A DNA stretch of 64,000 nt, taken from NCBI GenBank assembly GCA_015061165.1, contig SUXC01000014.1, forward strand, positions 3,584-67,583. The letters run 5' to 3'. The position numbers and the translations under genes were made by a program. This DNA is from Bacteroidales bacterium. Its GTDB lineage: Bacteria > Bacteroidota > Bacteroidia > Bacteroidales > Paludibacteraceae. The notes under the pieces were generated by a model, which did no database searches, was not told the origin of the DNA, and was given only the letters and a program-made list of their open reading frames with translations. Shown one piece after another: positions 3,852-63,230 of this stretch (the stretch's first letter is position 1; every line of letters begins with the position of its first letter).

Positions 3852-4610
3852 CTATAAAAATAGTTCTTGTGGATAGTCAATGTGTGTGAGGAAAAGGCCT
3901 TCGGCAGGGGCAGAATCTCCTGCGGCGCAGCGGTTGTGTTGTGCAATGACCTCGGCAAACTGCTCTTTGGTCATCTTACCACGACCCACCTCAAACAATG
4001 TTCCTACTACGGCACGCACCATATTGCGCAAGAAGCGGTCGGCTGCAATAGTGAACACAGCGTGTCCGTTGCCTAATTCTCGCCATTCTGCAAGCGTGAG
4101 GTCGCAAATAGTAGTTTTCACATCCGTATTCGTGCGGCAGAATGAAGCAAAATCCTGTTTGCCAATCAACCATTGCGCTGCCTCGTTCATGGCAGCAAAG
4201 TTCAGTCCTGGGCGCACGCGCGTGGCTTGTTGGCAGAGGAAAGGATCTTTGTGATCCACGATATGGTACTCGTAGGTGCGGCGCACGGCAGAGAACCGCG
4301 CATGCGCATCATCCGTTACAGGATAGATGTCAAAAATAGCGATGGAATCGGGCAAAATGCCGTTGAGGCGAAAGAGCAAATTTTGGCGATTGGCAATTGG
4401 CGATTGGCAATTGGCGAGATCGAAATGCGCATACATCTCGCGCGCATGGACACCCGCATCGGTGCGACCAGCGAAAGTGAGTGGTATCTCCTCGCGGAAA
4501 ATCATAGCCAACGCCTGCTCCATCGTCTCTTGAACAGTAATGCCATTGGGCTGGCGTTGCGAGCCGTGAAAGGCAGTGCCATCGTATGCAAAGCGAATGA
4601 AATAACGCAT
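3852..4610 (-). CDS. truA: tRNA pseudouridine(38-40) synthase TruA
   Basis: 252 aa. MRYFIRFAYDGTAFHGSQRQ and the catalytic GRTDAGVHA motif are canonical TruA. Confidence 0.93.
   Translation of the reverse strand: MRYFIRFAYDGTAFHGSQRQPNGITVQETMEQALAMIFREEIPLTFAGRTDAGVHAREMYAHFDLANCQSPIANRQNLLFRLNGILPDSIAIFDIYPVTDDAHARFSAVRRTYEYHIVDHKDPFLCQQATRVRPGLNFAAMNEAAQWLIGKQDFASFCRTNTDVKTTICDLTLAEWRELGNGHAVFTIAADRFLRNMVRAVVGTLFEVGRGKMTKEQFAEVIAQHNRCAAGDSAPAEGLFLTHIDYPQELFL
4384..4418. repeat. 5 x 7 nt TGGCGAT/TGGCAAT module inside truA
   Basis: tggcgat tggcaat tggcgat tggcaat tggcgag. On the minus strand it encodes ANCQSPIANRQ. Confidence 0.9.
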
Positions 4611-4618
4611 AATTCTTG

Positions 4619-4648
4619 CCTTTAACCTTTAACCTTTAACCTTTAACC
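4619..4648. repeat. CCTTTAA x 4 array at the flippase stop / truA start junction
   Basis: cctttaacctttaacctttaacctttaacc. It contains the flippase stop codon (4629-4631). Confidence 0.9.
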
Positions 4649-6167
4649 AAACATTTCGCACTTGCTGGTTGATTTCGGGGGAGAGGTCTTTGAACCATGC
4701 TACGGCACAACCTCCTCCGATGAGGACTATGGTGCGAATAATACTACTTAACCATATATTATTGATTGGCAAGTAGGCTTGCCACAGGAAATTCAGATTG
4801 AGTATCACCAAAATCAGAAGAAGAATCTTCAGATGTTGGCGCGTGAAAGTGGGTGCACGGAGCGTGTAACGCACTGTCAATGTGATTAATAGGAAATATA
4901 TTGCGTAAGCAATGAGATTGCTAACGGCTGCTCCATTCATACCAAAATAAGGAATGAGAAGATTATTGAGCACTATGGATAGAGCCGTTAGAATAAAGGA
5001 AAACAATAATGAGAAGGCATAGAAGCGGGAATAGTTGAGTGCCGAAGAACTAAACGAGCAAACGGCAATAATGAGTTGGCTGGTGCCTAACATCAATACC
5101 ACTTGGCGGGCAGTAGCGTATGTCTCGCCATTAGGCAGAATATGGAAGATGAGATCAATATTGAGCCAAATGAGGCAAAGAATCATGCCGCCTATGAGCA
5201 AGAGCGTACTGCTGACCTGCTGCATAAGGTGAGCCGTTTCACGCTGATTATTTTCCTTGATAGCCGTTGCTAATTGTGGTGAGGCAATGGCTGTCATGGA
5301 GCGATAGGGTATGCTGACCATTACGGCTATATAGGTAGCAATGGCAAAGATACCTGTATAATTTAGTCCCATCTCAGCGGTAATAAAGAAGGAAGAGAGC
5401 GTTGGTGCAAGCACGCTGGCTACTGCGGAAACGAGCAAAAACCCAGTGTAGAGCAGGTACTGGCGCACCAATGGGCGGTTCTGGCGCAAGAACTCCCAAT
5501 CGGGGCGGAGCGACACTTCACCTAACGAGAATAGATAGACCATATTGCAGCACATAGCCACAGCATATACGCCACACAAGGCTACCACGAAACCATCTAT
5601 ATCCACCACGCGAAACGCATAGAGCAAATAAGCAAGGAGCAATCCGATACGCGTGATGAGTTCGCGCACAGCACGAGGCACTACGATATGCATACGCACA
5701 TTAGCATTGGTCTCAAAAACAGTCTGATAGAGCATAAAGAACGCCATCGGGAGTACCATATAGTAGTACTCTACAAAGAGAGGGGACTTCTCCCCAAACC
5801 AATGACTAAGTGGTTCGTGGCATGCACAATAAATAGCGGTGAATAGGGCGAAACCTACGAGTGGAACAATCAGTGTCCAGAAGAAAAAACCGTGGTCGGA
5901 AGAATTTTGAATTAAGAATTTTGAATTTTGAATTACTTTATTTGAGGAGCTCTTAAAGTGCGGATAGAAGCGAATAATAGAAGATGACGTGCCGAGTTGG
6001 GCAAGTCCGATGAAGAGAGTGGCAGCATCTACCAATACGCGCGCCAGACCAATCTCCTCGGCTGTGAGGAAACGGGTGAGTACGAAGAACGTAGTAACAA
6101 AGCCCACCGCCACCCCAATATAGGTGACGATGGTGCCTTGAAAACTCTGTTTGGCGATGATGCCCAT
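4629..6167 (-). CDS. Wzx/MATE-like oligosaccharide flippase (polysaccharide biosynthesis protein)
   Basis: Polytopic membrane ORF. I place the start at the MGIIAKQSFQGTIVTYIGV methionine (rc ATG 6165-6167), because the track extension to 6239 reads through a repeat array. The stop codon lies inside the CCTTTAA array. Confidence 0.78.
   Translation of the reverse strand: MGIIAKQSFQGTIVTYIGVAVGFVTTFFVLTRFLTAEEIGLARVLVDAATLFIGLAQLGTSSSIIRFYPHFKSSSNKVIQNSKFLIQNSSDHGFFFWTLIVPLVGFALFTAIYCACHEPLSHWFGEKSPLFVEYYYMVLPMAFFMLYQTVFETNANVRMHIVVPRAVRELITRIGLLLAYLLYAFRVVDIDGFVVALCGVYAVAMCCNMVYLFSLGEVSLRPDWEFLRQNRPLVRQYLLYTGFLLVSAVASVLAPTLSSFFITAEMGLNYTGIFAIATYIAVMVSIPYRSMTAIASPQLATAIKENNQRETAHLMQQVSSTLLLIGGMILCLIWLNIDLIFHILPNGETYATARQVVLMLGTSQLIIAVCSFSSSALNYSRFYAFSLLFSFILTALSIVLNNLLIPYFGMNGAAVSNLIAYAIYFLLITLTVRYTLRAPTFTRQHLKILLLILVILNLNFLWQAYLPINNIWLSSIIRTIVLIGGGCAVAWFKDLSPEINQQVRNVWLKVKG
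5902..5936. repeat. 5 x 7 nt GAATTWW module inside the flippase CDS
   Basis: gaatttt gaattaa gaatttt gaatttt gaattac. It encodes KVIQNSKFLIQNS. Confidence 0.9.
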
Positions 6168-6183
6168 AATGCTTCGCGTTATT

Positions 6184-6330
6184 GGTTCGCTGCGCTCACG
6201 AAAGTGATTCGCTTCGCTCATGAAAGTGGTTCGTTCCACTCACGAAAATGGTTTCGCTTCGCTCACGTACGCTTTAGCCACTTTCGTCGCCATCGGCGAC
6301 CACTTTCGCACCTATGGTGCCACTTTCGCA
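6184..6330. repeat. Four direct 22-mers followed by three inverted partial copies
   Basis: Direct units ggttcgctgcgctcacgaaagt / gattcgcttcgctcatgaaagt / ggttcgttccactcacgaaaat / ggtttcgcttcgctcacgtacg (6184-6271). Inverted ccactttcg at 6278, 6300 and 6320. Confidence 0.85.
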
Positions 6331-6342
6331 AACTATGTTTGC

Positions 6343-8836: not shown

Positions 8837-10351
8837 TTATTTTTTCTTAATGAGTGCCTTTCCATCCAAACGGTAGAAAATGACACAATATATAATAAGG
8901 AGTATAGTGCCTATACCCATTTTAATCCATTCGTTGATTGGCAATAAGTGTGCCAAAGTGTAATATCCTGCCAAAAGTGTCAGAACAAGCAGGGTGTATA
9001 TGCCAATTCGGCGCAAATCGTATGGTATCTCGAGATGTTTGCGTCCCACGAAATAAGAGAGCAACATAATCACGAGGTAGCATACGGTACTGCTGGCTGC
9101 GGAAGCCATATAACCTATGCGAGGTACGAAGATGGCTTGCAGCGCAAAGGTAATGACTACTCCGATAATGGAGAAGTAGGCACCCCATTGCGTTTTGTCG
9201 GTGAGTTTGTACCAAAAACTGAGGTTGAAATATACGCCTTGGAAGATATACGTCCAGAGGACAACAGGTACGATTTTTAGTCCTTCCCAATAGGCGGGGG
9301 CGATAATAAATTTTAGTAGATCAAGGTAGAATATCATCCCCAACAAAATCATGTAGGAGAAGATAATATAGTATTTCATTGCATCAGCGTAGGCAGCCAC
9401 GGATTCGCGGTCTTTGTGCTTGGCAAAGACGAATGGTTCGTAGGCATAGCGGAAAGCCTGCGTGAACATCATCATCACCATTGCCACCTTGAAACATGCG
9501 CCGTAGATGCCCAATTGCGCTTGTGCATCGGCTCCATCGTAGAAGAAGGGGAATAAGATACGGTCCAGCGTTTGGTTCATGATACCGCACACACCCAATA
9601 CCAAGAGGGGCAACGAGTAGCGAAGCATCTGCTTCAGTAATTTGCCAGAAAATAGTTGTCGGGAGTCGGGAGTCGAGAGTCCGTAATCTGCGCGAAAGCC
9701 TTCAAGAATCGCTGGCAACAAACACAATGTCTGTATACCCGTAGCCATGATGTTTGCCACAAAGACATACCCTACTCCATAGTTGGGATTATACCACGAA
9801 GAGATGATTGCCCAATCCTGAATCTTCGGACAGAGTACGAGGAAGAAGAGATTGAGAATAATATTGAGGAATACGAATAGGAGTTTGAGTGCAGCAAACT
9901 GCAATGGGCGTTTCTTGTAGCGCAAGTACGCAAACGGTATGCTGGCAAAAGCATCCATTGCCACTACTATACCGAGCAGTGCAATGAACTCGCTGTGTGT
10001 AGGATAACCCAATGCGTTGGCTATAGGCATTCGCCATACCACACACGCTACCGCGAAAAGCAGTGATGTGGTAAAAAGCGCAATGAGCGAAGTACTATAA
10101 ACCGTCTTGGGATTTTCTTCGGCTTTGTTGGCAAAGCGGAAGAAGCCTGTTTCCATACCATAGGTGAGGATTACCAAAAGCAGTGCCGTCCACGCATAGA
10201 GGTTGGTAACTATACCATAGTCGGACTGCTGTTGCAGCACGTATGTGTATAGCGGAACGAGCAGCCAGTTGAGAAACTTGCCGACAATGGATGACACGCC
10301 ATAAATGGCGGTCTCCTTAGCGAGTATTTTCATTTGCAGGTTGCTGCTCAT
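8837..10351 (-). CDS. Wzx/MurJ-like oligosaccharide flippase family protein
   Basis: 504-aa polytopic membrane ORF. ATGA start/stop overlap with rsmI upstream. Confidence 0.8.
   Translation of the reverse strand: MSSNLQMKILAKETAIYGVSSIVGKFLNWLLVPLYTYVLQQQSDYGIVTNLYAWTALLLVILTYGMETGFFRFANKAEENPKTVYSTSLIALFTTSLLFAVACVVWRMPIANALGYPTHSEFIALLGIVVAMDAFASIPFAYLRYKKRPLQFAALKLLFVFLNIILNLFFLVLCPKIQDWAIISSWYNPNYGVGYVFVANIMATGIQTLCLLPAILEGFRADYGLSTPDSRQLFSGKLLKQMLRYSLPLLVLGVCGIMNQTLDRILFPFFYDGADAQAQLGIYGACFKVAMVMMMFTQAFRYAYEPFVFAKHKDRESVAAYADAMKYYIIFSYMILLGMIFYLDLLKFIIAPAYWEGLKIVPVVLWTYIFQGVYFNLSFWYKLTDKTQWGAYFSIIGVVITFALQAIFVPRIGYMASAASSTVCYLVIMLLSYFVGRKHLEIPYDLRRIGIYTLLVLTLLAGYYTLAHLLPINEWIKMGIGTILLIIYCVIFYRLDGKALIKKK
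9661..9681. repeat. 3 x 7 nt GGGAGTC module inside the second flippase CDS
   Basis: gggagtc gggagtc gagagtc. It encodes LSTPDSR. Confidence 0.8.
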
Positions 10352-11016: not shown

Positions 11017-11038
11017 AATTTTGAATTATGAATTATGA
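11017..11038. repeat. GAATTWW units at the rsmI start / upstream gene stop junction
   Basis: aatttt gaattat gaattat ga. It contains the stop codon at 11033-11035. Confidence 0.75.
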
Positions 11039-15445: not shown

Positions 15446-16534
15446 TTATTCCACCACTAAGCACCAGCCGTGTGTGTCTTCGGTGCGACCGTACTGGATG
15501 TCCTGCAAAGCGTGGTAGAGTTTTGTCAATACAGGACCTGGCTTGTCGCCAAAAGAATATGTAATATCATTATCTGGGTCATAGACCTTTGTCAATGGCG
15601 AAATAACACAAGCCGTACCACAAGCTGCTGCCTCCTGCATGTCTGCCAATTCCTCTACACGGATATGGCGACGAGTAACCTTCATACCCATCTCACGCGC
15701 CAAAGTCATCAACGAATCGTTGGTAATGCTGGGCAAAATAGCAGTGCTGCGAGGGGTGAGGTATTCGAAAGTTAGATCGCTTCGCTGTAGATTGGCTACG
15801 CCTGTAGATCGCTTGGCTGTAGTGGGGGCAGAGCCCTGTAGATGGCTACGCTGTTTGATTGCGATAAAATTGGAAGCGGTACACTCATCAATATACTTGT
15901 GCGTTTTGGCATCAGTGAACATGCACTCATAGCCCATAGCGTGCGCCGCTTCGCTGGCGCGGAAAGATGCCGCGTAGTTACCACCCACTTTCCAACAGCC
16001 CGTGCCTTGTGGCGCAGCACGATCGATGGTGCGGTTCACGATAGCAGGCATGCCTTTGAAACCATTGGGGAAATACGGACCAATAGGCGTAGGGACAACC
16101 ACAAACTCGCAATCTTTGCCTGGCCCTACACTGATATCAGGCGTAGTAGCAACGAGCAACGGACGGAAATAGAGCGTAGCACCAGTTTCGTAAGGAGGAA
16201 GGAAAGCGATGTTCTTCTCCAGTGCCAACAATATCGCTTCGCAAAAGAGTTCTACAGGCACGGGGGTCATCAGCAGTCCTTCGGCAGAATGGTACATGCG
16301 TTTGGCGTTCTCCTCCATGCGGAAGATACGCACCTTATCGTCCACACCACGAAAGGCCTTCAGTCCCTCAAAACACTCTTGGCCATAGTGCAGGCCTGTG
16401 GCAGCGGCATGGATAGGAATCATCTTGTCGCGCGTGGCATAGGGGCGTTCCCATACGCCATTCTTGCATGCCGCACGGACAATATAGTCCGTTTCGGTAT
16501 AGTGAAATGTCAGTTTACTCCAGTCTATATTCAT
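15446..16534 (-). CDS. ilvE: Branched-chain amino acid aminotransferase
   Basis: 362 aa. Class IV aminotransferase blocks (GLHYGQECFEGLKAFR, ILPSITNDS). Contains a repeat-encoded extra segment of about 25 aa. Confidence 0.9.
   Translation of the reverse strand: MNIDWSKLTFHYTETDYIVRAACKNGVWERPYATRDKMIPIHAAATGLHYGQECFEGLKAFRGVDDKVRIFRMEENAKRMYHSAEGLLMTPVPVELFCEAILLALEKNIAFLPPYETGATLYFRPLLVATTPDISVGPGKDCEFVVVPTPIGPYFPNGFKGMPAIVNRTIDRAAPQGTGCWKVGGNYAASFRASEAAHAMGYECMFTDAKTHKYIDECTASNFIAIKQRSHLQGSAPTTAKRSTGVANLQRSDLTFEYLTPRSTAILPSITNDSLMTLAREMGMKVTRRHIRVEELADMQEAAACGTACVISPLTKVYDPDNDITYSFGDKPGPVLTKLYHALQDIQYGRTEDTHGWCLVVE
15772..15853. repeat. CTGTAG-containing imperfect repeats inside ilvE
   Basis: ctgtag at 15785, 15802, 15817 and 15836. 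tagatcgctt occurs twice, 32 nt apart, and ggctacgc occurs twice. It encodes QRSHLQGSAPTTAKRSTGVANLQRSDL. Confidence 0.8.
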
Positions 16535-17100
16535 ATCTTCATAATGGTCTCAGGACCATATTCAAATAACAAGTCCAATATACTCTGTCCATTGCCAAAG
16601 CAAGGTTCTAAGTCCAATCCCTGCCAGTCGCTGGTTCGATTCTCGCCTAATAGCCTCTTTGCCTCTTCGCCTTTCGCATCGTTCGCTATCAAACGAATGA
16701 TTACCTCATGGATTTTCTCGTTAAAATCGACCAAAAAGCGCGTTTCTTGTTCGTAGAAAGGACGGAAGAAATCTGCGTAGTAATCGAAATAAGGTGTGCG
16801 TTTGTAGGCACTCATAAGGGCAATCCAATGCTGGTGTTGCCAACGCTTCTGGAAACTAATCTCCACATCGCGCGTGAACTGTTTGCTATCCACACGCTTC
16901 ACGGGCACGGTGAGCGTGAGGCGATTGGCAATTGGCGATTGGCAATTGGATTGAGAGTCGTGCGGCACAGTAATCGTACACCTATTGCGGTAGGTTTGCT
17001 TCGGAAAACTCTCCATCACCTCAATCTGGACTACCGATGGATTCGCCAAAAACTGGCGGTACCATTCTACAGGCCCCATATATGTTGTTGGCAATATCAT
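16531..17100 (-). CDS. WbqC family protein
   Basis: I place the start at MILPTTYMGPVEWYRQF (rc ATG 17098-17100). KQTYRNRCTI is the WbqC-family block. The track extension to 17211 reads through a heptamer module. Confidence 0.8.
   Translation of the reverse strand: MILPTTYMGPVEWYRQFLANPSVVQIEVMESFPKQTYRNRCTITVPHDSQSNCQSPIANRLTLTVPVKRVDSKQFTRDVEISFQKRWQHQHWIALMSAYKRTPYFDYYADFFRPFYEQETRFLVDFNEKIHEVIIRLIANDAKGEEAKRLLGENRTSDWQGLDLEPCFGNGQSILDLLFEYGPETIMKI
16919..16953. repeat. 5 x 7 nt TGGCGAT/TGGCAAT module inside the WbqC-family CDS
   Basis: aggcgat tggcaat tggcgat tggcaat tggattg. Bases 16920-16949 are identical to 4385-4414. Confidence 0.9.
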
Positions 17101-17105
17101 ATTTT

Positions 17106-17140
17106 TGGAATCGGGAATCGGGAGTCGAGAATTAGGATTT
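17106..17140. repeat. 5 x 7 nt GGGAATC-type module filling the wbqC-start / lepB-stop gap
   Basis: tggaatc gggaatc gggagtc gagaatt aggattt. The gap runs from 17101 to 17140. Confidence 0.85.
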
Positions 17141-18535
17141 TTATTCAAAATTGCTGAGTCCGATACGGTTCCAACGAATATGGCCTTTGCCCCATGGGTT
17201 GTCTTTCTCAATACTGAGCCATACGAACATTGGGCGGCCTACGATATGGTCTTCTGGCACAAAGCCCCAGTAACGGCTATCGGCTGACTTATGACGGTTG
17301 TCGCCCATCATCCAATAATAATCCATCTCAAAGACGTATGGTTCGCCCACTTTCATTGGTTTGAACTCATACGCATCGGCAATACGCTTATACAGGTGGA
17401 AGTTCTCCTCAGTAATCATCACCGTATCGCCCTTGGCAGGGATATAGATTGGTCCGTAGTTATCGCGTGTCCACGAGTTGTGTCCCAAAGGATACACCTC
17501 GCCACCTTGGTCTTCGGGCTCAATCTCTATGCTGAGGACATGGCTGTTCTTCTCGAGTTCGGCTTTCATCTCGGCAGTCAGTGGCAGGCGATACAATCCG
17601 TTGCCATTGCTCTCGCGGTCTTCTTTGGAAATACCCAATTTGCTCAAGTAACTATTACCCAACACATGACCATCGGTGCGAACGATATAGTTGTATTGCA
17701 AGTATGGGTGTACGGGTTCTTTCTGACCGTCGATATAAATCACATTATCAATGATTTGCAACGTGTCGCCTGGTGTGCCTACGCAACGTTTGACATAGTT
17801 CTCTCGGCGATCCACAGGGCGAACAACAATCTCGCCAAAGACATCCTTGCGGTTCTCTACCGTGCGCTTGCCATAGTAGTGGCAGAGAGTATAGTAGTCG
17901 GGATTTTGCATCTTCGTGCAGACCGTATCGCCCGTGGGGAAGTTAAACACCACAATATCGCCTTTCTCTACTTTGTCCCAACCACGGAGGCGTTTATACT
18001 CCCATTGTGGGTTGTCGAAATAACTCTTTCCGCCCCAAGGGAAAGTGTGTTGCACGAGAGGCATAGAGAGAGGTGTATTGGGCACACGTGCTCCGTAACT
18101 CATCTTATTCACACAAAGGAAATCGCCCACACGCAGGGTTTTCTCCAACGAAGAAGTGGGGATTTGATAATTCTGGAATATATAAACATTGATGAAATAC
18201 ACCGCTACCAACGCAAAAACGATGGCATCTATCCACGAACATATGGTATAGAGCGTGCTATTAGCATGCGGATTCTTTTCCTTTTGATTCCCGATCCCCG
18301 ATTCGCGATTCCTATTATCCACATTATCTGGTTTGTACTTCTTCCACCAGTTCCAAGGGATATACTTGGTAGTGAACATATCAGCAATAATTGGCAACAG
18401 TATGAGCCAACCGAGGCTTGCCCAATCGCCCCATGCTACCCAAACGACAAACGCGATGTAAATCGCGCACCATATGCCACAAGAAACCCACCCTTTGGTG
18501 GTTACTTCCTTGATTCTATCTTGAAAACTTTTCAT
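17141..18535 (-). CDS. lepB: Signal peptidase I
   Basis: Conserved SPase I box GDNRHKSADSRYWGFV and Ser box region IPTSSLEKTL. I place the start at the MKSFQDRIKE ATG (rc 18533-18535); the track start at 18568 is a TTG inside the promoter box. Confidence 0.9.
   Translation of the reverse strand: MKSFQDRIKEVTTKGWVSCGIWCAIYIAFVVWVAWGDWASLGWLILLPIIADMFTTKYIPWNWWKKYKPDNVDNRNRESGIGNQKEKNPHANSTLYTICSWIDAIVFALVAVYFINVYIFQNYQIPTSSLEKTLRVGDFLCVNKMSYGARVPNTPLSMPLVQHTFPWGGKSYFDNPQWEYKRLRGWDKVEKGDIVVFNFPTGDTVCTKMQNPDYYTLCHYYGKRTVENRKDVFGEIVVRPVDRRENYVKRCVGTPGDTLQIIDNVIYIDGQKEPVHPYLQYNYIVRTDGHVLGNSYLSKLGISKEDRESNGNGLYRLPLTAEMKAELEKNSHVLSIEIEPEDQGGEVYPLGHNSWTRDNYGPIYIPAKGDTVMITEENFHLYKRIADAYEFKPMKVGEPYVFEMDYYWMMGDNRHKSADSRYWGFVPEDHIVGRPMFVWLSIEKDNPWGKGHIRWNRIGLSNFE
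18286..18313. repeat. 4 x 7 nt GATTCCC-type module inside lepB
   Basis: gattccc gatcccc gattcgc gattcct. It encodes NRESGIGNQ. Confidence 0.85.
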
Positions 18536-18698: not shown

Positions 18699-18717
18699 AT
18701 TGACTGCTGAAAAGCGG

Positions 18718-18806
18718 GGGAATCGGGAGTCGGGAATCGGGAATCAAGCTGGGGAATCGGGAATCAGGAATCGAGAGTCAAGTGGGGGGATCGGGAGTCG
18801 GGAGTC
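18718..18806. repeat. Three blocks of GGGARTC heptamers (4 + 4 + 3 units)
   Basis: Blocks at 18718-18745, 18752-18779 and 18786-18806. Confidence 0.9.
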
Positions 18807-18896: not shown

Positions 18897-19823
18897 ATGA
18901 AACGTGTAAAACTATTTATTCTATTATTCATGCTTGGCTTCGTGGCACAAGCAGCGGTGTTTACACCTACTACTTTGCCCAATCCAAAGGCACAAGATCG
19001 CAGTAATTATGTCTGCAATCCCGATGAAATCGTGGCAACCAACGAGGTAATGTTCCTCAACCGTTTGGCGCGACAGTTGGAAGACTCCACCCAAGTGGAA
19101 CTATGCGTGGTAGCAGTGAATAGTATCGGTGAAATGGAGGCATTTGACTTCTGCTACGAGGTGTTTCAGCGTTGGGGCATTGGCAAAAAAGGGAAGAACA
19201 CGGGTGTGCTGTTGTTCCTTGCCGTAGAATCGCGCGATATACGTATCATGACGGGCGGTGGTATTGAAGGAATATTGACGGATGCCGTTTGTAATGAAAT
19301 CATACAAAAGACGATGATTTCACCGCTCCGTAATGCTGATTATTCAGATGCAATGGCGTTAGGTGCGTTGCGCATATACGAGATATGTACAGATGGTGCT
19401 GCGCCCGAAGAATTACGCCAAATGACTTCGGCTACCAATCGCTATCATTATGCCGATGAATCCGAAGAAAATGGTTGGTTGGAGTTGTTTTATTTTGTGG
19501 GTATTCCCTGCTTAATCTTTACCCTAATTATCGTTTTGCTACTGATGCCTAAGAAATGCCCAAAATGTGGCAAGCGCAGTCTAAGGAAAACGAATGAGCA
19601 GATTATCAACCGCGCCACAACACGCAAAGAAGGATTGGGTGTGCGCACATACTGCTGCAAAGATTGTGGACACCAAGAGCAGAAGACCTATATCATCCCA
19701 AAAGAAGTGCCCACAGTCATTATCACGGGCGGTGGTTCTCGTGGTGGCTTTGGCGGAGGCAGTTTTGGCGGTGGATTCGGCGGAGGTAGCACGTTCGGCG
19801 GAGGCGCAGGAGGGAAGTTTTAA
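18897..19823 (+). CDS. TPM (YgcG-like) domain protein with zinc-ribbon insert and Gly-rich tail
   Basis: Signal peptide MKRVKLFILLFMLGFVAQA. TPM block QVELCVVAVNSIGEMEAFDF...NTGVLLFLAVESRDIRI. CPKCG...CKDCGH. C-terminal GGFGGGSFGGGFGGG. Confidence 0.8.
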   Translation: MKRVKLFILLFMLGFVAQAAVFTPTTLPNPKAQDRSNYVCNPDEIVATNEVMFLNRLARQLEDSTQVELCVVAVNSIGEMEAFDFCYEVFQRWGIGKKGKNTGVLLFLAVESRDIRIMTGGGIEGILTDAVCNEIIQKTMISPLRNADYSDAMALGALRIYEICTDGAAPEELRQMTSATNRYHYADESEENGWLELFYFVGIPCLIFTLIIVLLLMPKKCPKCGKRSLRKTNEQIINRATTRKEGLGVRTYCCKDCGHQEQKTYIIPKEVPTVIITGGGSRGGFGGGSFGGGFGGGSTFGGGAGGKF

Positions 19824-19858
19824 GAATTTTGAATTTTGAATTTTGAATTAAGAATTAA
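19824..19858. repeat. 5 x 7 nt GAATTWW module immediately after the TPM gene stop
   Basis: gaatttt x3, gaattaa x2. Confidence 0.9.
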
Positions 19859-23800: not shown

Positions 23801-24806
23801 TTTCGCTTTCGAAGCAGGCGGCAGTCTTGACCAATTAGAGATAGTTTATCACACCTCGGAGCGCGAATACCAACAGGGCGAGCGCGTGGTATGGCTGTGC
23901 CATGCTCTCACCGCTAACTCCGACCCATTGGACTGGTGGCCAGAGATGGTGGGCGACGGTTGCTGCATTGATCCGAACAAAGACTATGTAGTGTGTGTCA
24001 ATATCTTCGGCTCTGCCTACGGCACCACAGGACCGAGAGATTTCGGGAATCGCGACTCGCGAATCCCGAATCAAAAAGGATATCTCGATTTTCCCAAGTT
24101 CACGGTACGCGATACAGCCCGCCTCTTCACTTTGGTGCGCGAGCATCTGGGCATAGAGCAAGTAGATTTGTTGGTGGGCAGTTCGATAGGCGGATTCCAT
24201 GCGTTGGAATGGGCAATTATGGAAGGCGAACGCATTCGCCATGCCGCGTTTATTGCCACTGCGCCTCGCGTGTCGCCATGGCTGAGCGCATGGATGGAGG
24301 TGCAACGTATGGCACTGGAGGCCGACCCCACGTTCCACGCCTGCGAGTCGCTGGATGGCGGATGCAAAGGGTTGGAGGCTGCACGCGCTATTTCGCTCAT
24401 CTCCTACCGCAGTTTTGATGGCTACAACCTCACGCAATACGAGACCGATGATGACTGCCTCTTTGCCTGTCGTGCAGCCAGTTACGAGCGCTATCAAGGC
24501 GAGAAACTGGTCAAACGCGGGTTTGATGCCTACTCCTACTACTACCTACTCCACTGCGTAGATAGCCAAAACGTAGGTCGCCATCGCGGTGGCATCAAAG
24601 CAGCATTGGCACAAATCAAAGCCCAAACGGTGGTGATAGCCATCACATCCGATGGACTCTTCCCACCATGCGAGAGTAGCGAGTGGGCAAAACATATCCC
24701 CCACGCCAAGTATTACGAGATAGAATCACGATTCGGACACGACGGATTCCTACTCGAAACCGAGCAAATCACACAAATAATAAATAGTTTAGAGGTTAAA
24801 GGTTAG
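23772..24806 (+). CDS. metX: Homoserine O-acetyltransferase
   Basis: 344 aa alpha/beta hydrolase with nucleophile elbow GSSIGG and C-terminal FGHDGFL. 29-nt overlap with metY. Confidence 0.88.
   Translation: MHLHKLTTHNFAFEAGGSLDQLEIVYHTSEREYQQGERVVWLCHALTANSDPLDWWPEMVGDGCCIDPNKDYVVCVNIFGSAYGTTGPRDFGNRDSRIPNQKGYLDFPKFTVRDTARLFTLVREHLGIEQVDLLVGSSIGGFHALEWAIMEGERIRHAAFIATAPRVSPWLSAWMEVQRMALEADPTFHACESLDGGCKGLEAARAISLISYRSFDGYNLTQYETDDDCLFACRAASYERYQGEKLVKRGFDAYSYYYLLHCVDSQNVGRHRGGIKAALAQIKAQTVVIAITSDGLFPPCESSEWAKHIPHAKYYEIESRFGHDGFLLETEQITQIINSLEVKG
24038..24072. repeat. GGGAATC-type module (4 clear units, possibly 5) inside metX
   Basis: (agatttc) gggaatc gcgactc gcgaatc ccgaatc. It encodes FGNRDSRIPNQ. 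Confidence 0.8.
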
Positions 24807-24819
24807 AGGCTAAAGGCAA
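24785..24819. repeat. RAGGYTA heptamer module spanning the metX stop
   Basis: tagttta gaggtta aaggtta gaggcta aaggcaa. Confidence 0.75.
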
Positions 24820-24846
24820 GAAATATGCGGCTCTGCCGCCCCGCCT

Positions 24847-24888
24847 TTACACCTTACACCCTACACTTTACACCACACACCATACACT
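24847..24888. repeat. 6 x 7 nt TTACACC-type array just upstream of thrA
   Basis: ttacacc ttacacc ctacact ttacacc acacacc atacact. Confidence 0.85.
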
Positions 24889-33556: not shown

Positions 33557-33591
33557 GATGTAAAGTGTAGAGTGTAAGGTGTAAAGGCAAA
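33557..33591. repeat. 5 x 7 nt RGTGTAA module (reverse complement of the TTACACC family)
   Basis: gatgtaa agtgtag agtgtaa ggtgtaa aggcaaa. Confidence 0.8.
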
Positions 33592-38991: not shown

Positions 38992-39025
38992 AGTCTTTAG
39001 GTTAGAGGTTAGAGGTTAAAGGCAC
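38991..39025. repeat. GAGGTTA heptamer module filling the ytxH-stop / holin-start gap
   Basis: tagtctt taggtta gaggtta gaggtta aaggcac. The gap runs from 38992 to 39028. Confidence 0.8.
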
Positions 39026-39788: not shown

Positions 39789-40970
39789 ATGAAACGGTTA
39801 AATTCGAATATACTGAGCATAGGAATCACCCTACTACTCGTAATCGTAGTAGTGGTTAGTTCGCTGGTAACCAGTCATATCGTAGAACAGTTTGAACAAG
39901 AAGAGCAAAAGAAAATCGAACTATGGGCAGAAGCTACACGACAATTCATATTGGCAGGCGAGAACGAGAACATTGACCTCCTCCTCCAAGTGATGGAAGG
40001 TAACACCACTATCCCCGTCTATATGGTGGATACCAACTACAACCTACTCCTATCACGCAACGTACAAGAACCCAAACGCAACGTAGAACGATTCTACACC
40101 AAGAAAATCAACGAACTACGCGCCACACAAGAACCTATCGAAGTGCGCATCTCCGACAGCGTGATGCAATATATCTATTACGAGCAATCATCCACATTGC
40201 AATGGCTGTCGTATTTCCCTTATATTCAGTTGGTTGTTATGCTGGCTTTGGCAGCCTTGGCTGCTATAGCCCTGCTCATGGTACAACGCAGCGAGAAGAA
40301 TAGCCTATGGGTAGGACTCTCCAAAGAGACGGCTCACCAACTCGGTACCCCTATCTCCTCGCTCAACGCATGGAACGAACTGCTGAAAGCCACCTACCCC
40401 AACGACCCGTTACTCCCACAAATGGACGAGGATATTCACCGTCTGCAAATGATAGCCGAGCGTTTTTCTAAGATAGGTTCGCAACCGACATTAGAGGAAC
40501 GCGAAGTGCTGCCTATCGTACAATCCGCCATAGACTACATGCGCGCGCGAACATCAAATAAGATAGAATATAAATTGGCTATTGGCGATGGGCAATTGGC
40601 TATTGGCGATAGAGCAAGAGCGATGCTGTGCGCACCGCTATTTGAATGGGTGATTGAAAACCTATGCAAGAACGCCATAGATGCCATGGACGGGAAAGGA
40701 AGTATCACGATTGAAGTGAAAACAGAAAACGGAAAGGGGAAAGCGGAAAACCTATATATTGATATTACTGACACGGGCAAGGGTATTGACCGCAGGAACT
40801 TCAAACGGATATTCCAACCCGGATACACAAGCAAAAAACGCGGATGGGGATTGGGACTGAGCTTAGGCAAGCGTATCATCGAAGATTACCATCGAGGCGA
40901 ACTCTTCGTGAAGCAATCGCAATTGGGTGTCGGTACGACGTTCCGAATCGTGTTGTGTAGCGTGGTGTAG
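39789..40970 (+). CDS. Sensor histidine kinase
   Basis: 393 aa with two TM segments. H-box ETAHQLGTPISSL. ATPase boxes NLCKNAIDA, DTGKGI, GWGLGLS. The stop codon lies inside a decamer repeat array. Confidence 0.85.
   Translation: MKRLNSNILSIGITLLLVIVVVVSSLVTSHIVEQFEQEEQKKIELWAEATRQFILAGENENIDLLLQVMEGNTTIPVYMVDTNYNLLLSRNVQEPKRNVERFYTKKINELRATQEPIEVRISDSVMQYIYYEQSSTLQWLSYFPYIQLVVMLALAALAAIALLMVQRSEKNSLWVGLSKETAHQLGTPISSLNAWNELLKATYPNDPLLPQMDEDIHRLQMIAERFSKIGSQPTLEEREVLPIVQSAIDYMRARTSNKIEYKLAIGDGQLAIGDRARAMLCAPLFEWVIENLCKNAIDAMDGKGSITIEVKTENGKGKAENLYIDITDTGKGIDRRNFKRIFQPGYTSKKRGWGLGLSLGKRIIEDYHRGELFVKQSQLGVGTTFRIVLCSVV
40576..40610. repeat. 5 x 7 nt TGGCKAT module inside the histidine kinase CDS
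   Basis: tggctat tggcgat gggcaat tggctat tggcgat. It encodes LAIGDGQLAIGD. Confidence 0.9.
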
Positions 40971-44421: not shown

Positions 44422-44491
44422 GGGAGTTGGGAATTAGGAATTAGGAATTATGAATTTTGAATTATGAATTTTGAATTTTGAATTATGAATA
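44422..44491. repeat. 10 x 7 nt NNGAATT array between dnaX and the metallophosphoesterase gene
   Basis: gggagtt gggaatt aggaatt aggaatt atgaatt ttgaatt atgaatt ttgaatt ttgaatt atgaata. The last unit carries the start codon at 44485. Confidence 0.9.
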
Positions 44492-46294: not shown

Positions 46295-46329
46295 ATTATT
46301 TGAGTCACGAATCGCGAAGCCCGAATCCA
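46295..46329. repeat. GARTCNC-type heptamer module filling the gap before ygiQ
   Basis: (attattt) gagtcac gaatcgc gaagccc gaatcca. The gap runs from 46291 to 46328. Confidence 0.7.
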
Positions 46330-49986: not shown

Positions 49987-49990
49987 TGTT

Positions 49991-50025
49991 GATTCCCGAA
50001 TCGCGACTCCCGATTCCCGAGTCCT
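49991..50025. repeat. 5 x 7 nt GAYTCSC module filling a 37-nt gene gap
   Basis: gattccc gaatcgc gactccc gattccc gagtcct. The gap runs from 49987 to 50023. Confidence 0.9.
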
Positions 50026-51809: not shown

Positions 51810-53041
51810 TGCGCAAATCCCTGTTTATATTACTCTTTATATCCGTTGCACTACAGTTATTGGCTGTAGAGGTGGATTATCGTTTGAGTGGTCGTGCAGG
51901 TTGGATTATGCCCGATGGTAAGGTGGACAAGATGACCAACCAGCAGGGCAAGTGGATTGCTCCTGCGATGGGTGCAGATTTTTCGGCTACTTTCCACCCC
52001 CATTGGCTCGCTTTGCAACAATGGAATGGTGCAGGTGTAGGTGTAGGCTTCAGTTATTGGCATTTGCCTCACGATTTGTTAGGACAGGCATTTGCACCAT
52101 ATACCTATATGGATATTCCGTTGGTCAAATTACAGCATTTTGTATTGGGGCTACGCCCTGGTGTAGGAGCGGCGTTTATGACCAAGACCTATCAAAACAC
52201 GGTTGCAGAGAAAGATTTATACAATAGTTTGAATAACGCTAATCAGTCTATTGGCAGTGTAACGAATCTCTATTTCCCCGAGATGTTGTACATGGACTTT
52301 CCCATAGCCAAAGGTTGGGCGGTAGGGATTTCGGGTGGTTGGTACCATATTAGCAATGGCAGCCTGCGCCAACCCAATTCGGGTTATAATCTCTTTGCGG
52401 CTGAGTTAGCCCTACGCTACTCCCCTACCCAATCACCAATCGCCAATAGCCAATCGCCAATCACCAATAGCCAATCACCAATCGCCAAACGATGGTCTTT
52501 CATTGCATCCGCCACGGCATCTGGGCGACAAGTGTATTATAGAGATCAACAGACTTTCTTTGTCGGTTCGATGCATGCAGCTGCTTATTGGCATGCTCAC
52601 CCTATTTTCCATTTGGGTGGCGGTGTGGATGTTTTTTATGATGGTGCATATGTTCAGCGCGATACGTATTTCCAAAAAACGAATCTTGCAGCAGCTCAAG
52701 CGGGCGACTGTTGGCGTGTGGGTGTGAGTGTACAACCTACGTTTGTGGTAGGTGATTTCTCTTTAGGATTACATCTTGGTGCTTATATGTACGACCCTGT
52801 TAAGGAGTTAGAGCCATATAGCGAGGCTATAGTATCGCCTACAGGAGGTCGATTGGACAAGCCCATTTTCTATGCGTATGACATATTGAATGCAGGTAGC
52901 GCGGGTTATCCTGACGGATGGATGTACACTTCGGTTGTATTGCGCTATCGATTACCTTGGCATATTTTCTTGCAGGCCATGATGAAGAGCCACCTAACCA
53001 AAGTGGAGTTTGTCAGTCTCGGCATTGGATTCTACTATTAA
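51809..53041 (+). CDS. Outer-membrane acyloxyacyl hydrolase / PagL-like protein (tentative)
   Basis: 410 aa with a signal peptide. WYHISNGSL resembles the HxSNG catalytic block of lipid A deacylases. Interrupted in frame by a heptamer array of about 70 nt. Confidence 0.6.
   Translation: MRKSLFILLFISVALQLLAVEVDYRLSGRAGWIMPDGKVDKMTNQQGKWIAPAMGADFSATFHPHWLALQQWNGAGVGVGFSYWHLPHDLLGQAFAPYTYMDIPLVKLQHFVLGLRPGVGAAFMTKTYQNTVAEKDLYNSLNNANQSIGSVTNLYFPEMLYMDFPIAKGWAVGISGGWYHISNGSLRQPNSGYNLFAAELALRYSPTQSPIANSQSPITNSQSPIAKRWSFIASATASGRQVYYRDQQTFFVGSMHAAAYWHAHPIFHLGGGVDVFYDGAYVQRDTYFQKTNLAAAQAGDCWRVGVSVQPTFVVGDFSLGLHLGAYMYDPVKELEPYSEAIVSPTGGRLDKPIFYAYDILNAGSAGYPDGWMYTSVVLRYRLPWHIFLQAMMKSHLTKVEFVSLGIGFYY
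52425..52494. repeat. Array of about 10 x 7 nt ATCRCCA/ATAGCCA units inside the PagL-like CDS
   Basis: Eight clear units at 52432-52487 plus degenerate flanks. It encodes QSPIANSQSPITNSQSPIAK. Confidence 0.85.
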
Positions 53042-53156: not shown

Positions 53157-53226
53157 GTTACCTTTACACCTTATACTTTACACCTTAAACCTTAAACATT
53201 AAACCATACACCCTACACTACCAACA
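53157..53226. repeat. Array of about 10 x 7 nt TTACACC/TTAAACC units
   Basis: Eight clear units at 53164-53219. Confidence 0.85.
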
Positions 53227-55003: not shown

Positions 55004-55062
55004 TTTAGTTAATAGTTTATAATTAATAATTAATATTTATTCATCTGTTTCCTAAACATTAA

Positions 55063-59020: not shown

Positions 59021-59064
59021 AACATAGTAATATCATAGTTATCACATAGTAATCACATAGTAGA
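59021..59064. repeat. 4 x 11-mer cacatagtaat type
   Basis: aacatagtaat atcatagttat cacatagtaat cacatagtaga. Confidence 0.8.
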
Positions 59065-59164
59065 GATAGGGAGGAGAAACCCCCTCCCAGCCTCCCCCTA
59101 AAAGGGGAGGAGTAATTGAAAGGAATACTCGGCAAATATGCCGAGAGAGGAACAAACTATGAAT

Positions 59165-59237
59165 TAGGTTTTTTAGGTTTTTCAGGTTTTATAGGTTTTG
59201 CAAATCCTGAAAAACCTAAAAAACCTATAAATCCTAT
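59165..59237. repeat. Palindromic element of about 72 nt: 4 direct + 4 inverted 9-mers
   Basis: taggttttt taggttttt caggtttta taggttttg | caaatcctg aaaaaccta aaaaaccta taaatccta. Confidence 0.85.
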
Positions 59238-61467: not shown

Positions 61468-61507
61468 CAGCGATTTTGTGAATTTTATATCAAAACCCTA
61501 TACAATT

Positions 61508-63190
61508 ATGTCAAAACACACTTGGAAATATGCCAACATAGGTGGCAATACGCGCGTAGTTATCAAAGACGGCAAAGATATTCAGCACTTGGCTGAATTG
61601 GATGAGAAACTATGGGCAGTACTGGCATGTCCTGTTTCGGGCTTGGAATTACCCGAAGAGAGTCTTCGTTGTATTGATATGGATAAAGACAACAAGATTC
61701 ACGTAAAAGAGGTGGTGGAAACGGCGCAATGGCTTTGCAGCGTTTTGCACAAACCCGATGTACTATTGGCAGGTACACCTTCGCTGCAACTCACGGATAT
61801 CAAAGATGAGAGTTTGCAAGATATAGCCACTCCTCTGGCAGTGGATGGTGTGATTACATTGGAAGCGGTGAAAGCAGCCATAGGAGCCGTAGTAGTGGAG
61901 CAGCAACCATTGCCCGAAGCGCCCTACACCGCAGAAGTGACTGCTGCCTATAAAGCATGCAAGGAGGGATATAGCCAATATTACACGACAGCCCGTCTGC
62001 AAGCATTGGGATTGGCTACCCTACCCGCTGATGCAGTGGTGCCAGGTCTCACGGAAGAGGCATTTGCCGAAATGGGTAAGAAGATTGCCGATTACGAAGC
62101 GGGCAAAGCAGCTGCTGAGGCAGCGAATGCAAGTGCATTGGCTGCTGCGCAAGCACAATACCGTCCGTTGGAGAAACTGCTGTTGCTCTGCCGCGACTTC
62201 TGTACATTGCTTCGCAACTTCGTGTCATTTCAGGACTTCTATGCCAAGCGTGGCAAAGCACTGCTCGGGCGTGGCGCAGATGATGAATCGCCATGGGCTA
62301 TTTTCCAAGCAGGCACCTTGGTGATTGACCAACGCGCATGCAACCTCTGTATGAAGGTTAGCGATATGGCAAAACACAATACGCAAGCAGCCGACAGCGG
62401 CATGTTCCTCATCTACTGCAATTGCAAGCACCACGCCACAGGACAAACCATGCAGATTGTGGCAGCCATGACAGTAGGCGATATCCGCCATCTGAAAGTA
62501 GGCAAGAACGCCCTGTTCTATGACCGTCAAGGACGAGACTGGGAAGCAGAAGTGGTGAAGATTATTGATAATCCTATCTCTATCGGTCAAGCGTTTTGGA
62601 GTCCATACCGCAAGTTGGGCGACTGGGTAAGCGGATTAATCACGAAATCGGCAGCCGAGAAAGAGAAGAAATCCTTTGCCGATATGACCGCGAAACTGCA
62701 AACAACTCCTGCTGCTCCTGCCGCAGCCCAACAGCCAGCTCAACCTGCTCCATTTGATATTGCTAAGTTCGCAGGTATCTTTGCGGCCATTGGTATGGCG
62801 GTCGGATATATTGGTAGTTTCTTTACCAGTATTGCATTAGGATTGAAAGGTTTAGGTTGGTGGGGATGGTTAGTAATTCCAGGTTTGTTGCTGGTAATCA
62901 GTGGTCCATCCATGATTTTGGCATGGATGAAACTGCGCAAGCGTAACTTGGCTCCCCTATTGAATGCCAATGGTTGGGCTATCAATGCCGATGCGATAGT
63001 GAATGTGTTGTTTGGCAATACATTGACCGAACAAGCACAATACCCTATCATGAAACTGAAAGACCCATTCGCCAAAAAGGGTCTTTCGAAAGGTAGCAAA
63101 TGGAGCATTGCCATTGCTGCTATCGTGTTGGGCATCGCTATTGCGGTAGTTACACTCTATCTGTGTGGCTTCCGCGTATGCGTTGGTTAA
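61508..63190 (+). CDS. Hypothetical membrane-anchored protein with an EF-hand-like loop
   Basis: 560 aa from MSKHTWKYANIGG. DMDKDNKIHVKE fits a 12-residue EF-hand loop (D1, D3, D5, I8, E12). Three predicted C-terminal TM helices. Confidence 0.65.
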   Translation: MSKHTWKYANIGGNTRVVIKDGKDIQHLAELDEKLWAVLACPVSGLELPEESLRCIDMDKDNKIHVKEVVETAQWLCSVLHKPDVLLAGTPSLQLTDIKDESLQDIATPLAVDGVITLEAVKAAIGAVVVEQQPLPEAPYTAEVTAAYKACKEGYSQYYTTARLQALGLATLPADAVVPGLTEEAFAEMGKKIADYEAGKAAAEAANASALAAAQAQYRPLEKLLLLCRDFCTLLRNFVSFQDFYAKRGKALLGRGADDESPWAIFQAGTLVIDQRACNLCMKVSDMAKHNTQAADSGMFLIYCNCKHHATGQTMQIVAAMTVGDIRHLKVGKNALFYDRQGRDWEAEVVKIIDNPISIGQAFWSPYRKLGDWVSGLITKSAAEKEKKSFADMTAKLQTTPAAPAAAQQPAQPAPFDIAKFAGIFAAIGMAVGYIGSFFTSIALGLKGLGWWGWLVIPGLLLVISGPSMILAWMKLRKRNLAPLLNANGWAINADAIVNVLFGNTLTEQAQYPIMKLKDPFAKKGLSKGSKWSIAIAAIVLGIAIAVVTLYLCGFRVCVG

Positions 63191-63195
63191 TTTAA

Positions 63196-63230
63196 GAATT
63201 TTGAATTAGGAATTAAGAATTTTGAATTAA
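63196..63230. repeat. 5 x 7 nt GAATTWW module after the EF-hand protein gene stop
   Basis: gaatttt gaattag gaattaa gaatttt gaattaa. Confidence 0.9.

Follow-up and report, generated by a model that had tools for sequence, protein, structure and literature searches.

Dispersed heptanucleotide repeat arrays at gene junctions and in in-frame loop slots of a Bacteroidales genome

What are the short tandem arrays of 7-nt units that crowd the gene junctions, and enter the coding regions, of a 64,000-nt stretch from a Bacteroidales bacterium of the family Paludibacteraceae (assembly GCA_015061165.1, contig SUXC01000014.1, positions 3,584 to 67,583 of the forward strand; hereinafter the window)? An initial annotation of this stretch had described them as modules of a few sequence families with lengths quantised at 35 or 70 nt, and had argued that they were discrete elements or products of a templated process. 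We propose, with a probability of roughly 0.6, that they are heptanucleotide simple sequence repeats (SSRs) of the kinds termed short tandemly repeated repetitive sequences (STRRs) and long SSRs (LSSRs), which belong to a few dispersed families and are shaped by slippage, by the availability of permissive sites and by en-bloc copying.

The arrays were located with Tandem Repeats Finder (TRF) and with a simple period-p self-match detector across the window. The detector returned 23 period-7 arrays, as opposed to 0.05 in shuffled sequence. Counted in whole units and compared to Markov-3 simulations, arrays of two units are barely above chance (11 versus 7.0), whereas those of three (8 versus 0.07) and four units (12 versus 0) are in great excess; one array has five units and single ones have seven, eight and nine. 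Their TRF copy numbers range from 3.1 to 8.6. The heptamer arrays are real and far beyond chance, and all those listed in the initial annotation were recovered in place or within a few bases, with the one at 46295, too degenerate for a TRF call, being read directly from the sequence. Independent JGI, ENA and Logan assemblies carry these arrays with 100% identity, which rules out an assembly artefact, and Rfam and tRNA scans gave no match at any array in the window. Periods 14 and 21, as seen by the detector, are echoes of period 7. Tandem period 11 is likewise enriched (8 arrays versus 0.05 expected), and units of 9, 10, 15 and 22 nt are present too.

Gene calls were transferred onto the window from public contigs identical to it (L001, L002, L083 and L089; L093 is 99.99% identical), leaving 6,760 of 63,468 nt (10.7%) as intergenic DNA. 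Among other genes, the identical contigs encode SusC/SusD, Por_Secre_tail proteins, DnaX and TruA; at species level, the genome that the radical-SAM protein matches best is a Paludibacteraceae metagenome-assembled genome (MAG; 81% identity), followed by other rumen or faecal Bacteroidales. Comparisons were made with five strains at 95-96% average nucleotide identity (ANI) to the window (L084-L088), with sister-species contigs at 86-90% identity (L090, L091, L094) and with 80 other Bacteroidota loci covering 1.49 Mb. A metagenome scan with TPM_phosphatase yielded only 12 short loci with few arrays in them.

The units are far from random. As had been claimed from the sequence alone, they fall into few families: 21 of the 23 arrays differ by at most one mismatch from one of five heptamers, namely GAATTTT (F1), GGGAATC (F2), TGGCAAT (F3), AGGTTAA (F4) and TTACACC (F5). 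By way of a chance control, a set of seven such families takes in about 12% of random heptamers, and five would take in fewer; only 16 of the 63 period-7 arrays in the 80 other loci match these families. The five lie 2-4 substitutions apart, and the array at 44422-44490 grades from GGGAGTT through GGGAATT, AGGAATT and ATGAATT to TTGAATT, linking F2 and F1. Together with the mixture of TTACACC and TTAAACC at 53164-53219, this indicates that units also evolve within arrays. In the sister species, families F3, F4 and F5 are found again, in part at other sites than in the window.

Do these families come in fixed lengths? With boundaries set by the detector, the main cluster lies at 21-35 nt and only seven of the 23 arrays come within 2 nt of 35 or 70. 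The supposed five-unit arrays have TRF copy numbers of 3.4 to 5.6, and the three taken for ten units, which are the long arrays of the window, really measure 69, 60 and 55 nt. The pooled clade provides 57 distinct arrays, with 21, 20, 5, 1, 3, 1, 1, 1 and 1 at 3, 4, 5, 6, 7, 8, 9, 11 and 12 whole units, respectively, the remaining three being of 20 nt, under three units; no peak appears at ten units. The lengths have a single broad mode at 3-5 units (21-35 nt), beyond which they tail off thinly to 90 nt. The distribution in the window is no different from that in the 80 other loci (Mann-Whitney P = 0.43), where period 7 is the commonest (63 arrays, at a density about 8.5 times below that of the window) and where the excess amounts to about 29, 20, 8 and 2 arrays at three to six units, with rare arrays of 74-188 nt. 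Array length against count, a check that had been suggested for the complete genome, shows no 35- or 70-nt peaks in the window, the pooled clade or the 80 loci. On the strength of objective boundaries, pooled histograms and the strain polymorphism described below, a quantised length is rejected. Following microsatellite theory, a mode near four units would need no discrete element, because length-dependent slippage balanced by point mutation yields one. Very long heptamer arrays are found elsewhere: GGCARAG arrays of 74 and 159 nt in a Prolixibacteraceae MAG (L026, 19698-19941) and an AGATAAG array of 188 nt in a rumen Bacteroidales MAG (L061, 9794-9981).

Slippage is seen directly in the strains, where orthologous intergenic arrays differ in exact 7-nt steps, which also refutes a fixed length. 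One of them is the F4 array at 4619..4648 (CCTTTAA x4.3), which covers the final 20 nt and the stop codon of a Polysacc_synt gene (4629-6167, minus strand) and extends into the 18-nt gap between this gene and TruA; the region around it is 60 nt long in the window and 53 nt long in two strains, with four or three units. The region around the F1 array at 11017..11038 (GAATTAT x3.1) measures 52, 59 or 66 nt by strain, its alleles having 2, 3 or 4 units (22, 29 or 36 nt). Likewise, the F1 array at 19820..19858 (GAATTTT x5), placed directly after the TPM_phosphatase stop codon in a 54-nt gap, has 27, 35, 45 or 55 nt by strain, and a 10/11-nt-unit array takes its place in the sister species. The comparison of orthologous junctions that the initial annotation had called for thus shows both unit-number polymorphism and presence/absence. 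In four strains, the array of the gap 17080-17140 is replaced by an unrelated insert of about 200 nt (204 nt between alignment anchors); again in four strains, the WbqC and aminotransferase genes, which overlap by 4 nt in the window, have at their junction an F1 array that provides both stop and start. Through replication slippage, existing arrays lengthen and shorten by whole units, and this, along with point mutation, would produce the 3-5-unit mode.

The ~200-nt insert belongs to a dispersed AT-rich element of about 110-200 nt with the core GTAATTTTGGGATAATT, which is found at gene junctions of the sister strains (L084 4612-4628, L086 6024-6040, L087 5669-5685, L088 5983-5999 and 6754-6770) and is absent from the window. 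In L088, it also occupies the WbqC/aminotransferase junction.

One could stop here and regard the arrays as plain microsatellites, which grow from chance two-unit seeds through slippage alone, with the families being merely the best-slipping heptamers and no copying between loci. The demonstrated 7-nt-step polymorphism is what such a process would give, the prevalence of period 7 and the smooth decay from three to six units in the 80 unrelated loci agree with it, and Mrazek's polymerase-footprint idea, as recounted in PMC4679880, would fit. However, the scarcity of two-unit arrays relative to three- and four-unit ones is hard to square with growth from such seeds, and the coding arrays considered below are harder still. 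Taken together, these points render slippage alone the least probable of the explanations that we weighed.

The arrays concentrate at gene junctions, as the initial annotation had held: 16 of 25 touch intergenic DNA (binomial P = 2e-10; about 15-fold enrichment), with the other nine lying wholly in coding sequence, and 10 of the 15 co-directional gaps of 16-120 nt have an array versus two of the seven divergent gaps. In the co-directional gaps, the array begins 0-13 nt past the upstream stop codon or overlaps it, and often reaches the next ATG. The near-exact filling of gaps that had been described is true of 49987-50023 (37 nt), which is filled by an F2 array (GATTCCC x4.9, 49991..50024), and for the most part of 38992-39028 (37 nt; F4, AGGTTAG x3.4, 38999..39022) and 46291-46328 (38 nt; a degenerate F2 array, CGAATCG CGAAGCC CGAATCC, with three clear units by eye, 46302..46328, which terminates at the ATG of the radical SAM gene). 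It does not extend to the fourth gap, cited as 17101-17140: the real gap is 17080-17140 (61 nt), about half of which (~26-34 nt) is array (F2, GGAATCG x3.7, 17107..17132). Two further gaps are filled almost to the base: the 16-nt gap 11017-11032, by the GAATTAT array mentioned above, and the 65-nt gap 44420-44484 after the DnaX stop, where the longest array of the window, the F2-to-F1 array of about 9.9 units at 44422..44490, runs from stop to start and the ATG of the next gene lies within a GAATTATG unit. The TAA stop codons of the upstream genes at 4629 and 11033 are supplied by F4 and F1 units, respectively.

Such placement invites the alternative that the arrays are functional cis-elements acting on operon mRNA or DNA, be it as sites for RNA-binding proteins (S1, Csp or CsrA-like), as G-quadruplexes (GGGAATC x4) or as unstructured spacers tuning downstream translation, in a phylum that lacks Shine-Dalgarno initiation. 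Beyond the proximity to stop and start codons in co-directional gaps, it is favored by the like placement of the GGGAATC repeats of Xanthomonas and of the TAACTGA repeats, by the agreement of our four-unit mode with the four-unit preference reported in PMC4692102, and by four GGG tracts with 4-nt loops, a canonical G3N4 x4 quadruplex motif, at 18718-18745. This is the first module of an F2 composite in the divergent gap between the S26 signal peptidase and TPM genes (18712..18803; TRF period 34 x2.7), which comprises three ~34-nt modules, each with a 6-8-nt spacer and 3-4 GGGARTC units. Nevertheless, it is the only place with four intact G3 tracts; the other F2 arrays retain 2-3, and quadruplex formation is putative throughout. 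Moreover, every family occurs in both orientations relative to transcription, with no strand rule: the five F1 arrays of the window all read GAATTWW on the plus strand, a bias that is not significant since the coding one is forced by the avoidance of stop codons and only four are free. Five unrelated units occupy the same niches; a single junction may have different families, a 10/11-mer array, the ~200-nt insert or nothing in close relatives; and nine arrays lie in coding loops of cytoplasmic enzymes. The folding z-scores of array-bearing gaps range from -3.2 to +1.8 without a trend and are similar to those of array-free gaps, and so lend no support to a role as RNA structure or unstructured spacer. 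Rehm et al. found no regulatory role for the Xanthomonas repeats (PMC4692102). On balance, we consider functional cis-elements improbable. Being direct repeats with no folding trend, the heptamer arrays are also distinct from the palindromes of MITE-like (miniature inverted-repeat transposable) elements and from REP/BIME (repetitive extragenic palindromic/bacterial interspersed mosaic) elements, from which they had been set apart at the outset.

The arrays within genes offer a different angle on the question. All nine are in frame and without stop codons; as 3 x 7 = 21, coding heptamer arrays encode 7-residue peptide repeats, which are QSPIANx for F3 (TruA, WbqC, PagL), of the GNRESGI type for F2 and KIQNSKF for F1. 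In TruA (3852-4610, minus strand), the F3 array (TTGGCRA x4.7 with an exact 14-nt superperiod, 4383..4417) translates to ANCQSPIANRQ, and in WbqC that at 16920..16949 reads SNCQSPIANRL and is unchanged in all strains compared. These two unrelated genes share an identical 30-mer, (GGCGATTGGCAATT)x2+GG, which has the 14-nt superperiod. Two further F3 arrays read TQSPIANSQSPITNSQSPIAK in PagL (CCAATCR x8.6 with a 21-nt superperiod, 52429..52488) and KLAIGDGQLAIG in the C-terminal part of an HATPase_c open reading frame (ORF; ATTGGCT x4.9, 40574..40607). The coding F1 array (GAATTWW x4.9, 5902..5935) reads VIQNSKFLIQNS in a Polysacc_synt gene. F2 is found in a second Polysacc_synt gene (8837-10351, minus strand; GTCGGGA x3.4, 9658..9681, of the same length in all strains compared) and in the S26 signal peptidase (GATTCCC x3.9, 18286..18312), and an F2-like array in Abhydrolase_1 (TCGCGAA x4.3, 24043..24072), where the sister species has a GCCGGAA-type array of equal length. 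Coding arrays keep their length between strains or change it by 21 nt (S26 peptidase, 464 versus 457 residues); at the S26 site, L084 and L085 have a segment that is 21 nt shorter and without a heptamer array. Phase variation does not describe them: the coding arrays are in frame and constant in length among strains, and their hosts are cytoplasmic housekeeping enzymes (TruA, the aminotransferase, WbqC, aspartokinase/homoserine dehydrogenase), not surface or virulence genes.

Comparison of the host genes reveals slots whose contents are exchanged. In the branched-chain aminotransferase (15446-16534, minus strand), a 15-nt-unit array (15767..15852) occupies a hypervariable loop slot, the patch being a ~27-residue insertion where the solved homologue 3uyy has two residues. 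Between CTASNFIGI and EYLTPR, this loop ranges from 8 to 41 residues with many unrelated repeat peptides, of at least five repeat types, among homologues that are 79-97% identical. At the DNA level, the 15-nt units of the window correspond to GGGAGTC x3 in L084, TAGGCGA x3 in L085-L088, AAAATTC x5 in L110, a hairpin element with AGGCGAA units in L109 and a minimal AGGCGAA x2-3 in L107. Similarly, the stretch that holds the TruA patch is variable and exceeds that of E. coli TruA by four residues; in this slot, conserved flanks enclose 36-45 nt that may be GCCAATY x5 (window), AATTCWW x4 (L112) or GATTCCC-like (L113), or else a GCTKCCG-like array (L111) or a 96-nt palindromic element (L084), in genes 83-97% identical to that of the window. 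A second variable patch of WbqC (16636..16686) has an 8-nt-unit array in the window and an AATTCAA heptamer array in L087 and L088. Finally, in the aspartokinase/homoserine dehydrogenase of the sister species (L090, L091), a 54-nt F3 array replaces 45 nt of ordinary coding sequence, which by eye bears no evident resemblance to the F3 unit; since neither the window nor L110, which is more distant, has a repeat at this site, the array is the derived state.

Other elements also enter or extend such genes. A palindromic element with the core CTCCCTNAAGGGANGG, which encodes ...PQPLPKGKG... and is absent from the window, lies in frame in loop slots that hold heptamers elsewhere (L084 ~19040-19135 in TruA; L109 ~7445-7500 in the aminotransferase). 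A hypothetical 241-residue gene (11033-11758, minus strand) is packed with tandem repeats of 8-, 9-, 10-, 12-, 18-, 21- and 27-nt periods; its orthologue in L111 has heptamer arrays of 79 and 90 nt, and its length in strains ranges from 213 to 254 residues. The last 130 residues of the HATPase_c ORF (39789-40970) cross three repeat arrays (40574-40992), one of which is of another family (GAAARCR x3.6-4.6, 40718..40751), and there is a 108-nt overlap with the convergent GHMP-kinase gene; instead of native protein, this tail may be read-through of repeat DNA. In L110 (16595-16690), the aspartokinase/homoserine dehydrogenase ORF call gains 32 N-terminal residues via an upstream TTACACC array (LYTLHPTLYTLHHTL).

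Returning to the slippage, permissive-site and copying model, we advance the following account of its two remaining parts. The arrays would survive solely where 20-70 nt of arbitrary sequence is tolerated: operon-internal spacers after stop codons, gene 3' ends, other intergenic DNA and protein surface loops, in the last of which they must keep the frame and avoid stop codons. The confinement to such sites is observed; we infer tolerance as its cause. Further, about 20-45 nt of an existing family may be copied en bloc, so that new sites are colonised and old patches overwritten. The likeliest route would be template switching or short-patch gene conversion during replication or repair, as opposed to unit-by-unit growth from local sequence. 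Four observations argue for this: seeding or growth of a coding array one unit at a time would pass through frameshifts, since each 7-nt step shifts the frame; two-unit arrays are scarce against abundant 3-4-unit ones; new arrays belong to old families; and the sequence replaced in the dehydrogenase lacks evident likeness to the incoming unit. To these may be added the narrow range of families, the exchange of slot contents in TruA and the aminotransferase, and the identical 30-mers of TruA and WbqC, whose 14-nt superperiod makes stepwise in-frame growth impossible. The 30-mers and all four observations but the third also run against slippage from local seeds. As for fitness, the arrays are most likely near-neutral and would, in passing, provide gene junctions with TAA stop codons, from F4 and F1 units, and with an ATG start codon, from GAATTATG.

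If patches are indeed copied as blocks, might a dedicated machinery be at work? One version would have heptamer arrays written from few templates, the families, with a typical product of ~30-45 nt, by a templated polymerase, a reverse-transcriptase-like activity or an integrase acting at breaks or stalled forks, so that the arrays would be discrete written modules. The families are few and outlast individual arrays, as the partly different F3, F4 and F5 sites of the sister species illustrate; the patches of the TruA slot measure 36-45 nt between identical flanks; the ~34-nt module is itself repeated at 18712-18803; two genes share identical 30-mers; and the patchy cross-phylum spread of heptamer repeats was read by MacGregor as possible horizontal transfer (PMC4679880). 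All of this would be expected of a writing machinery, but general template switching could produce the same patterns. We saw no candidate gene, target-site duplication, fixed insertion point or conserved terminal sequence; the slot arrays are embedded in variable non-repeat residues; the lengths are continuous from 20 to 90 nt; the units grade into one another within 44422-44490; and in scans of viral contigs the F3 30-mer had no match and the F2 pattern only three. A dedicated machinery thus strikes us as a doubtful proposition. A broader formulation, that an active patch-writing process templated by the repeat family overwrites ~20-45 nt at permissive sites, including in-frame surface loops of housekeeping enzymes, is speculative and rather unlikely, though worth bearing in mind: it would explain why different repeat cassettes sit in one slot with identical flanks across strains, and STRR-type dispersal, unexplained since 1990, would then have a dedicated and discoverable mechanism. 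The original view of discrete elements or a templated process is conceivable: slippage is demonstrated, yet the in-loop patches, family swaps and new colonisations do require en-bloc copying in some form. The initial annotation was right that these are not ordinary random microsatellites, that few dispersed families are involved and that co-directional junctions are where they concentrate.

Several considerations weigh against the combination of slippage, permissive sites and en-bloc copying that we favor. The material compared consists of 64 kb and ~20-kb pieces of relatives, not whole genomes, and no copying event with an identifiable donor was caught in it. We know of no enzyme or intermediate for en-bloc copying. 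The closeness of the families and the F2-to-F1 grading at 44422-44490 mean that in-situ unit turnover could mimic some of the family swaps, particularly when coupled with steps of +/-21 nt. Some patches have flanks that are themselves diverged, so that recombination between strains could import alleles and exaggerate the turnover. Finally, near-neutrality is an assumption.

How do these arrays relate to known repeats? The STRRs of heterocystous cyanobacteria were reportedly described by Mazel et al. in 1990, with the units CCCCAGT, TTGGTCA and CAACAGT. They and the small dispersed repeats of Elhai resemble the present arrays in having few heptamer families at many loci and tiny elements inside genes. 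Cyanobacterial STRRs in the strict sense are rejected: the gene content (SusC/SusD, Por_Secre_tail) and the best genome match point to a Paludibacteraceae-like member of the Bacteroidales, and none of the three STRR units is present in the window. Ogata et al. (2000) are said to have found palindromic elements of ~100-150 nt in frame in protein-coding genes of Rickettsia, which, like the arrays here, would be selfish short DNA tolerated as surface peptide in housekeeping proteins; these are not tandem heptamers, and their nearer analogue is the hairpin element of the L084 TruA and the L109 aminotransferase.

The initial annotation knew of no described class to which the arrays could belong, yet heptanucleotide repeats have been described, including the unit GGGAATC (PMC4679880, PMC4692102). 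Heptanucleotide tandem repeats are the commonest long SSR in many prokaryotes (Mrazek, Guo and Shah 2007, as cited in PMC4679880). The LSSRs share with our arrays the 7-nt units, a patchy phylogenetic distribution, a mostly non-coding location and proneness to slippage; the hosts highlighted in the account of PMC4679880 are Burkholderia, Xanthomonas, cyanobacteria and actinobacteria, with neither gut Bacteroidales nor in-frame loop hot spots figuring in that account. The arrays of the window have every LSSR/STRR-like defining feature that we examined: tandem excess, dispersed families, a mainly non-coding location and whole-unit polymorphism. The quadruplex-forming GGGAATC/GGGGAYT repeats of Xanthomonas and Nostoc have a four-unit mode (Rehm et al. 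2015, PMC4692102), and those of Xanthomonas are ~90% intergenic, mostly co-directional, near the stop codon of the upstream ORF and rare between divergent ORFs. F2 shares with them the unit (GGGARTC), the placement, and variation in length and sequence between close relatives (PMC4692102), and the F2 arrays at 17107, 18286, 18712-18803 and 49991 conform to the pattern GGGANTN that includes GGGAATC. In contrast, F2 stands here alongside four co-equal families, and G-rich units are a minority among the five; few F2 arrays retain four intact G-tracts, and the setting is another phylum with 46% G+C and a third of the arrays in coding loops. The TAACTGA repeats, for which a role with RNA-binding proteins (CsrA-like and others) has been proposed, occur in Beggiatoaceae, cyanobacteria and five Bacteroidetes including Paludibacter propionicigenes (MacGregor 2015, PMC4679880). 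Like the arrays here, they form short sets (2-6 copies) that are intergenic, often directly before starts, and show 7-nt indels between strains; in some genomes, these sets are mixed with other heptamers (PMC4679880). In BOGUAY they point forward to the start codon, whereas the orientation here is mixed, and TRF and family matching detected no TAACTGA family in the window.

In the literature, we found nothing on heptanucleotide repeats in Bacteroidales, and did not meet loop slots with alternative repeat families, though Elhai et al. 2008, outside our coverage, may describe related insertions in Nostoc. The repeats are of a known kind in a new host; the swapping of slot contents in conserved genes is the part worth following. 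Neither PMC4692102 nor PMC4679880 identified a function or transmission mechanism for heptanucleotide families, whose origin and spread they leave unexplained. To this problem, the present case adds an abundant gut or rumen lineage of Bacteroidales that is already represented by many metagenome assemblies, and where strain comparison separates two processes, stepwise slippage and en-bloc replacement at hot-spot slots of conserved genes (such as TruA and the aminotransferase). Such slots are natural reporters for birth, switch and step events. At a practical level, the arrays alter gene ends, starts and called ORFs (N-terminal extensions), and can split protein clusters of near-identical enzymes.

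The remaining period-7 arrays of the window lie at gene ends and in longer gaps. An F4 array (TTAAAGG x4, 24789..24817) spans the stop codon of Abhydrolase_1 and is followed by an F5 array (TTACACC x5.9, 24845..24888) in the 88-nt gap upstream of aspartokinase/homoserine dehydrogenase. A second F5 array (TGTAAAG x4, 33559..33586) is in an 811-nt divergent gap, and the mixed F5/F4 array noted above (TTACACC/TTAAACC, 6-8 units, 53164..53219) is in a 249-nt convergent one. The 71-nt gap between SusD and SusC contains an AT-rich array outside the five families (TTAATAA x4.4, 55006..55039). An F1 array (GAATTWW x5.6, 63192..63230) in a 74-nt convergent gap begins a few nt past a stop codon and lies upstream of a terminator-like hairpin.

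Repeats of other periods have their own settings. Of the 11-nt-unit arrays (2.5-6.1 copies), five (13645-13671, 18655-18699, 39540-39606, 53090-53129 and 59018-59062) are found in long intergenic regions, not in operon-internal gaps. That at 18655-18699 (AATCACTAACG) is in the divergent region upstream of TPM_phosphatase, and related 11-mer arrays of ~3 to 7 copies precede the TPM homologue in L087, L088, L095 and L097. A 22-nt unit (TTCGCTTCGCTCACGAAAGTGA) is repeated 3.7 times at 6186-6267, in the 175-nt gap 6168-6342, with a TCAC-GAAA-GTGA hairpin in each unit. The small-ORF region downstream of an LHH-domain gene has a match to the Rfam DUF805b RNA motif (14647-14681, minus strand; 39.5 bits against a gathering score of 35.6). 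The surroundings of the AAA_14/DUF4143 ATPase gene (27898-29255; also L090, L091 and L094) differ in flanking genes between strains, and L091 and L094 have a second copy of this gene, which suggests a mobile or defence-island-like spot. Lastly, in a 1-kb repeat-rich region upstream of SusC/SusD, (TTAGGTTTT)x4 is directly followed by (AAAACCTAA)x4 at 59164-59236; these inverted 9-mer arrays fold to a hairpin of ~25 bp (-23 kcal/mol, z = -7.8).

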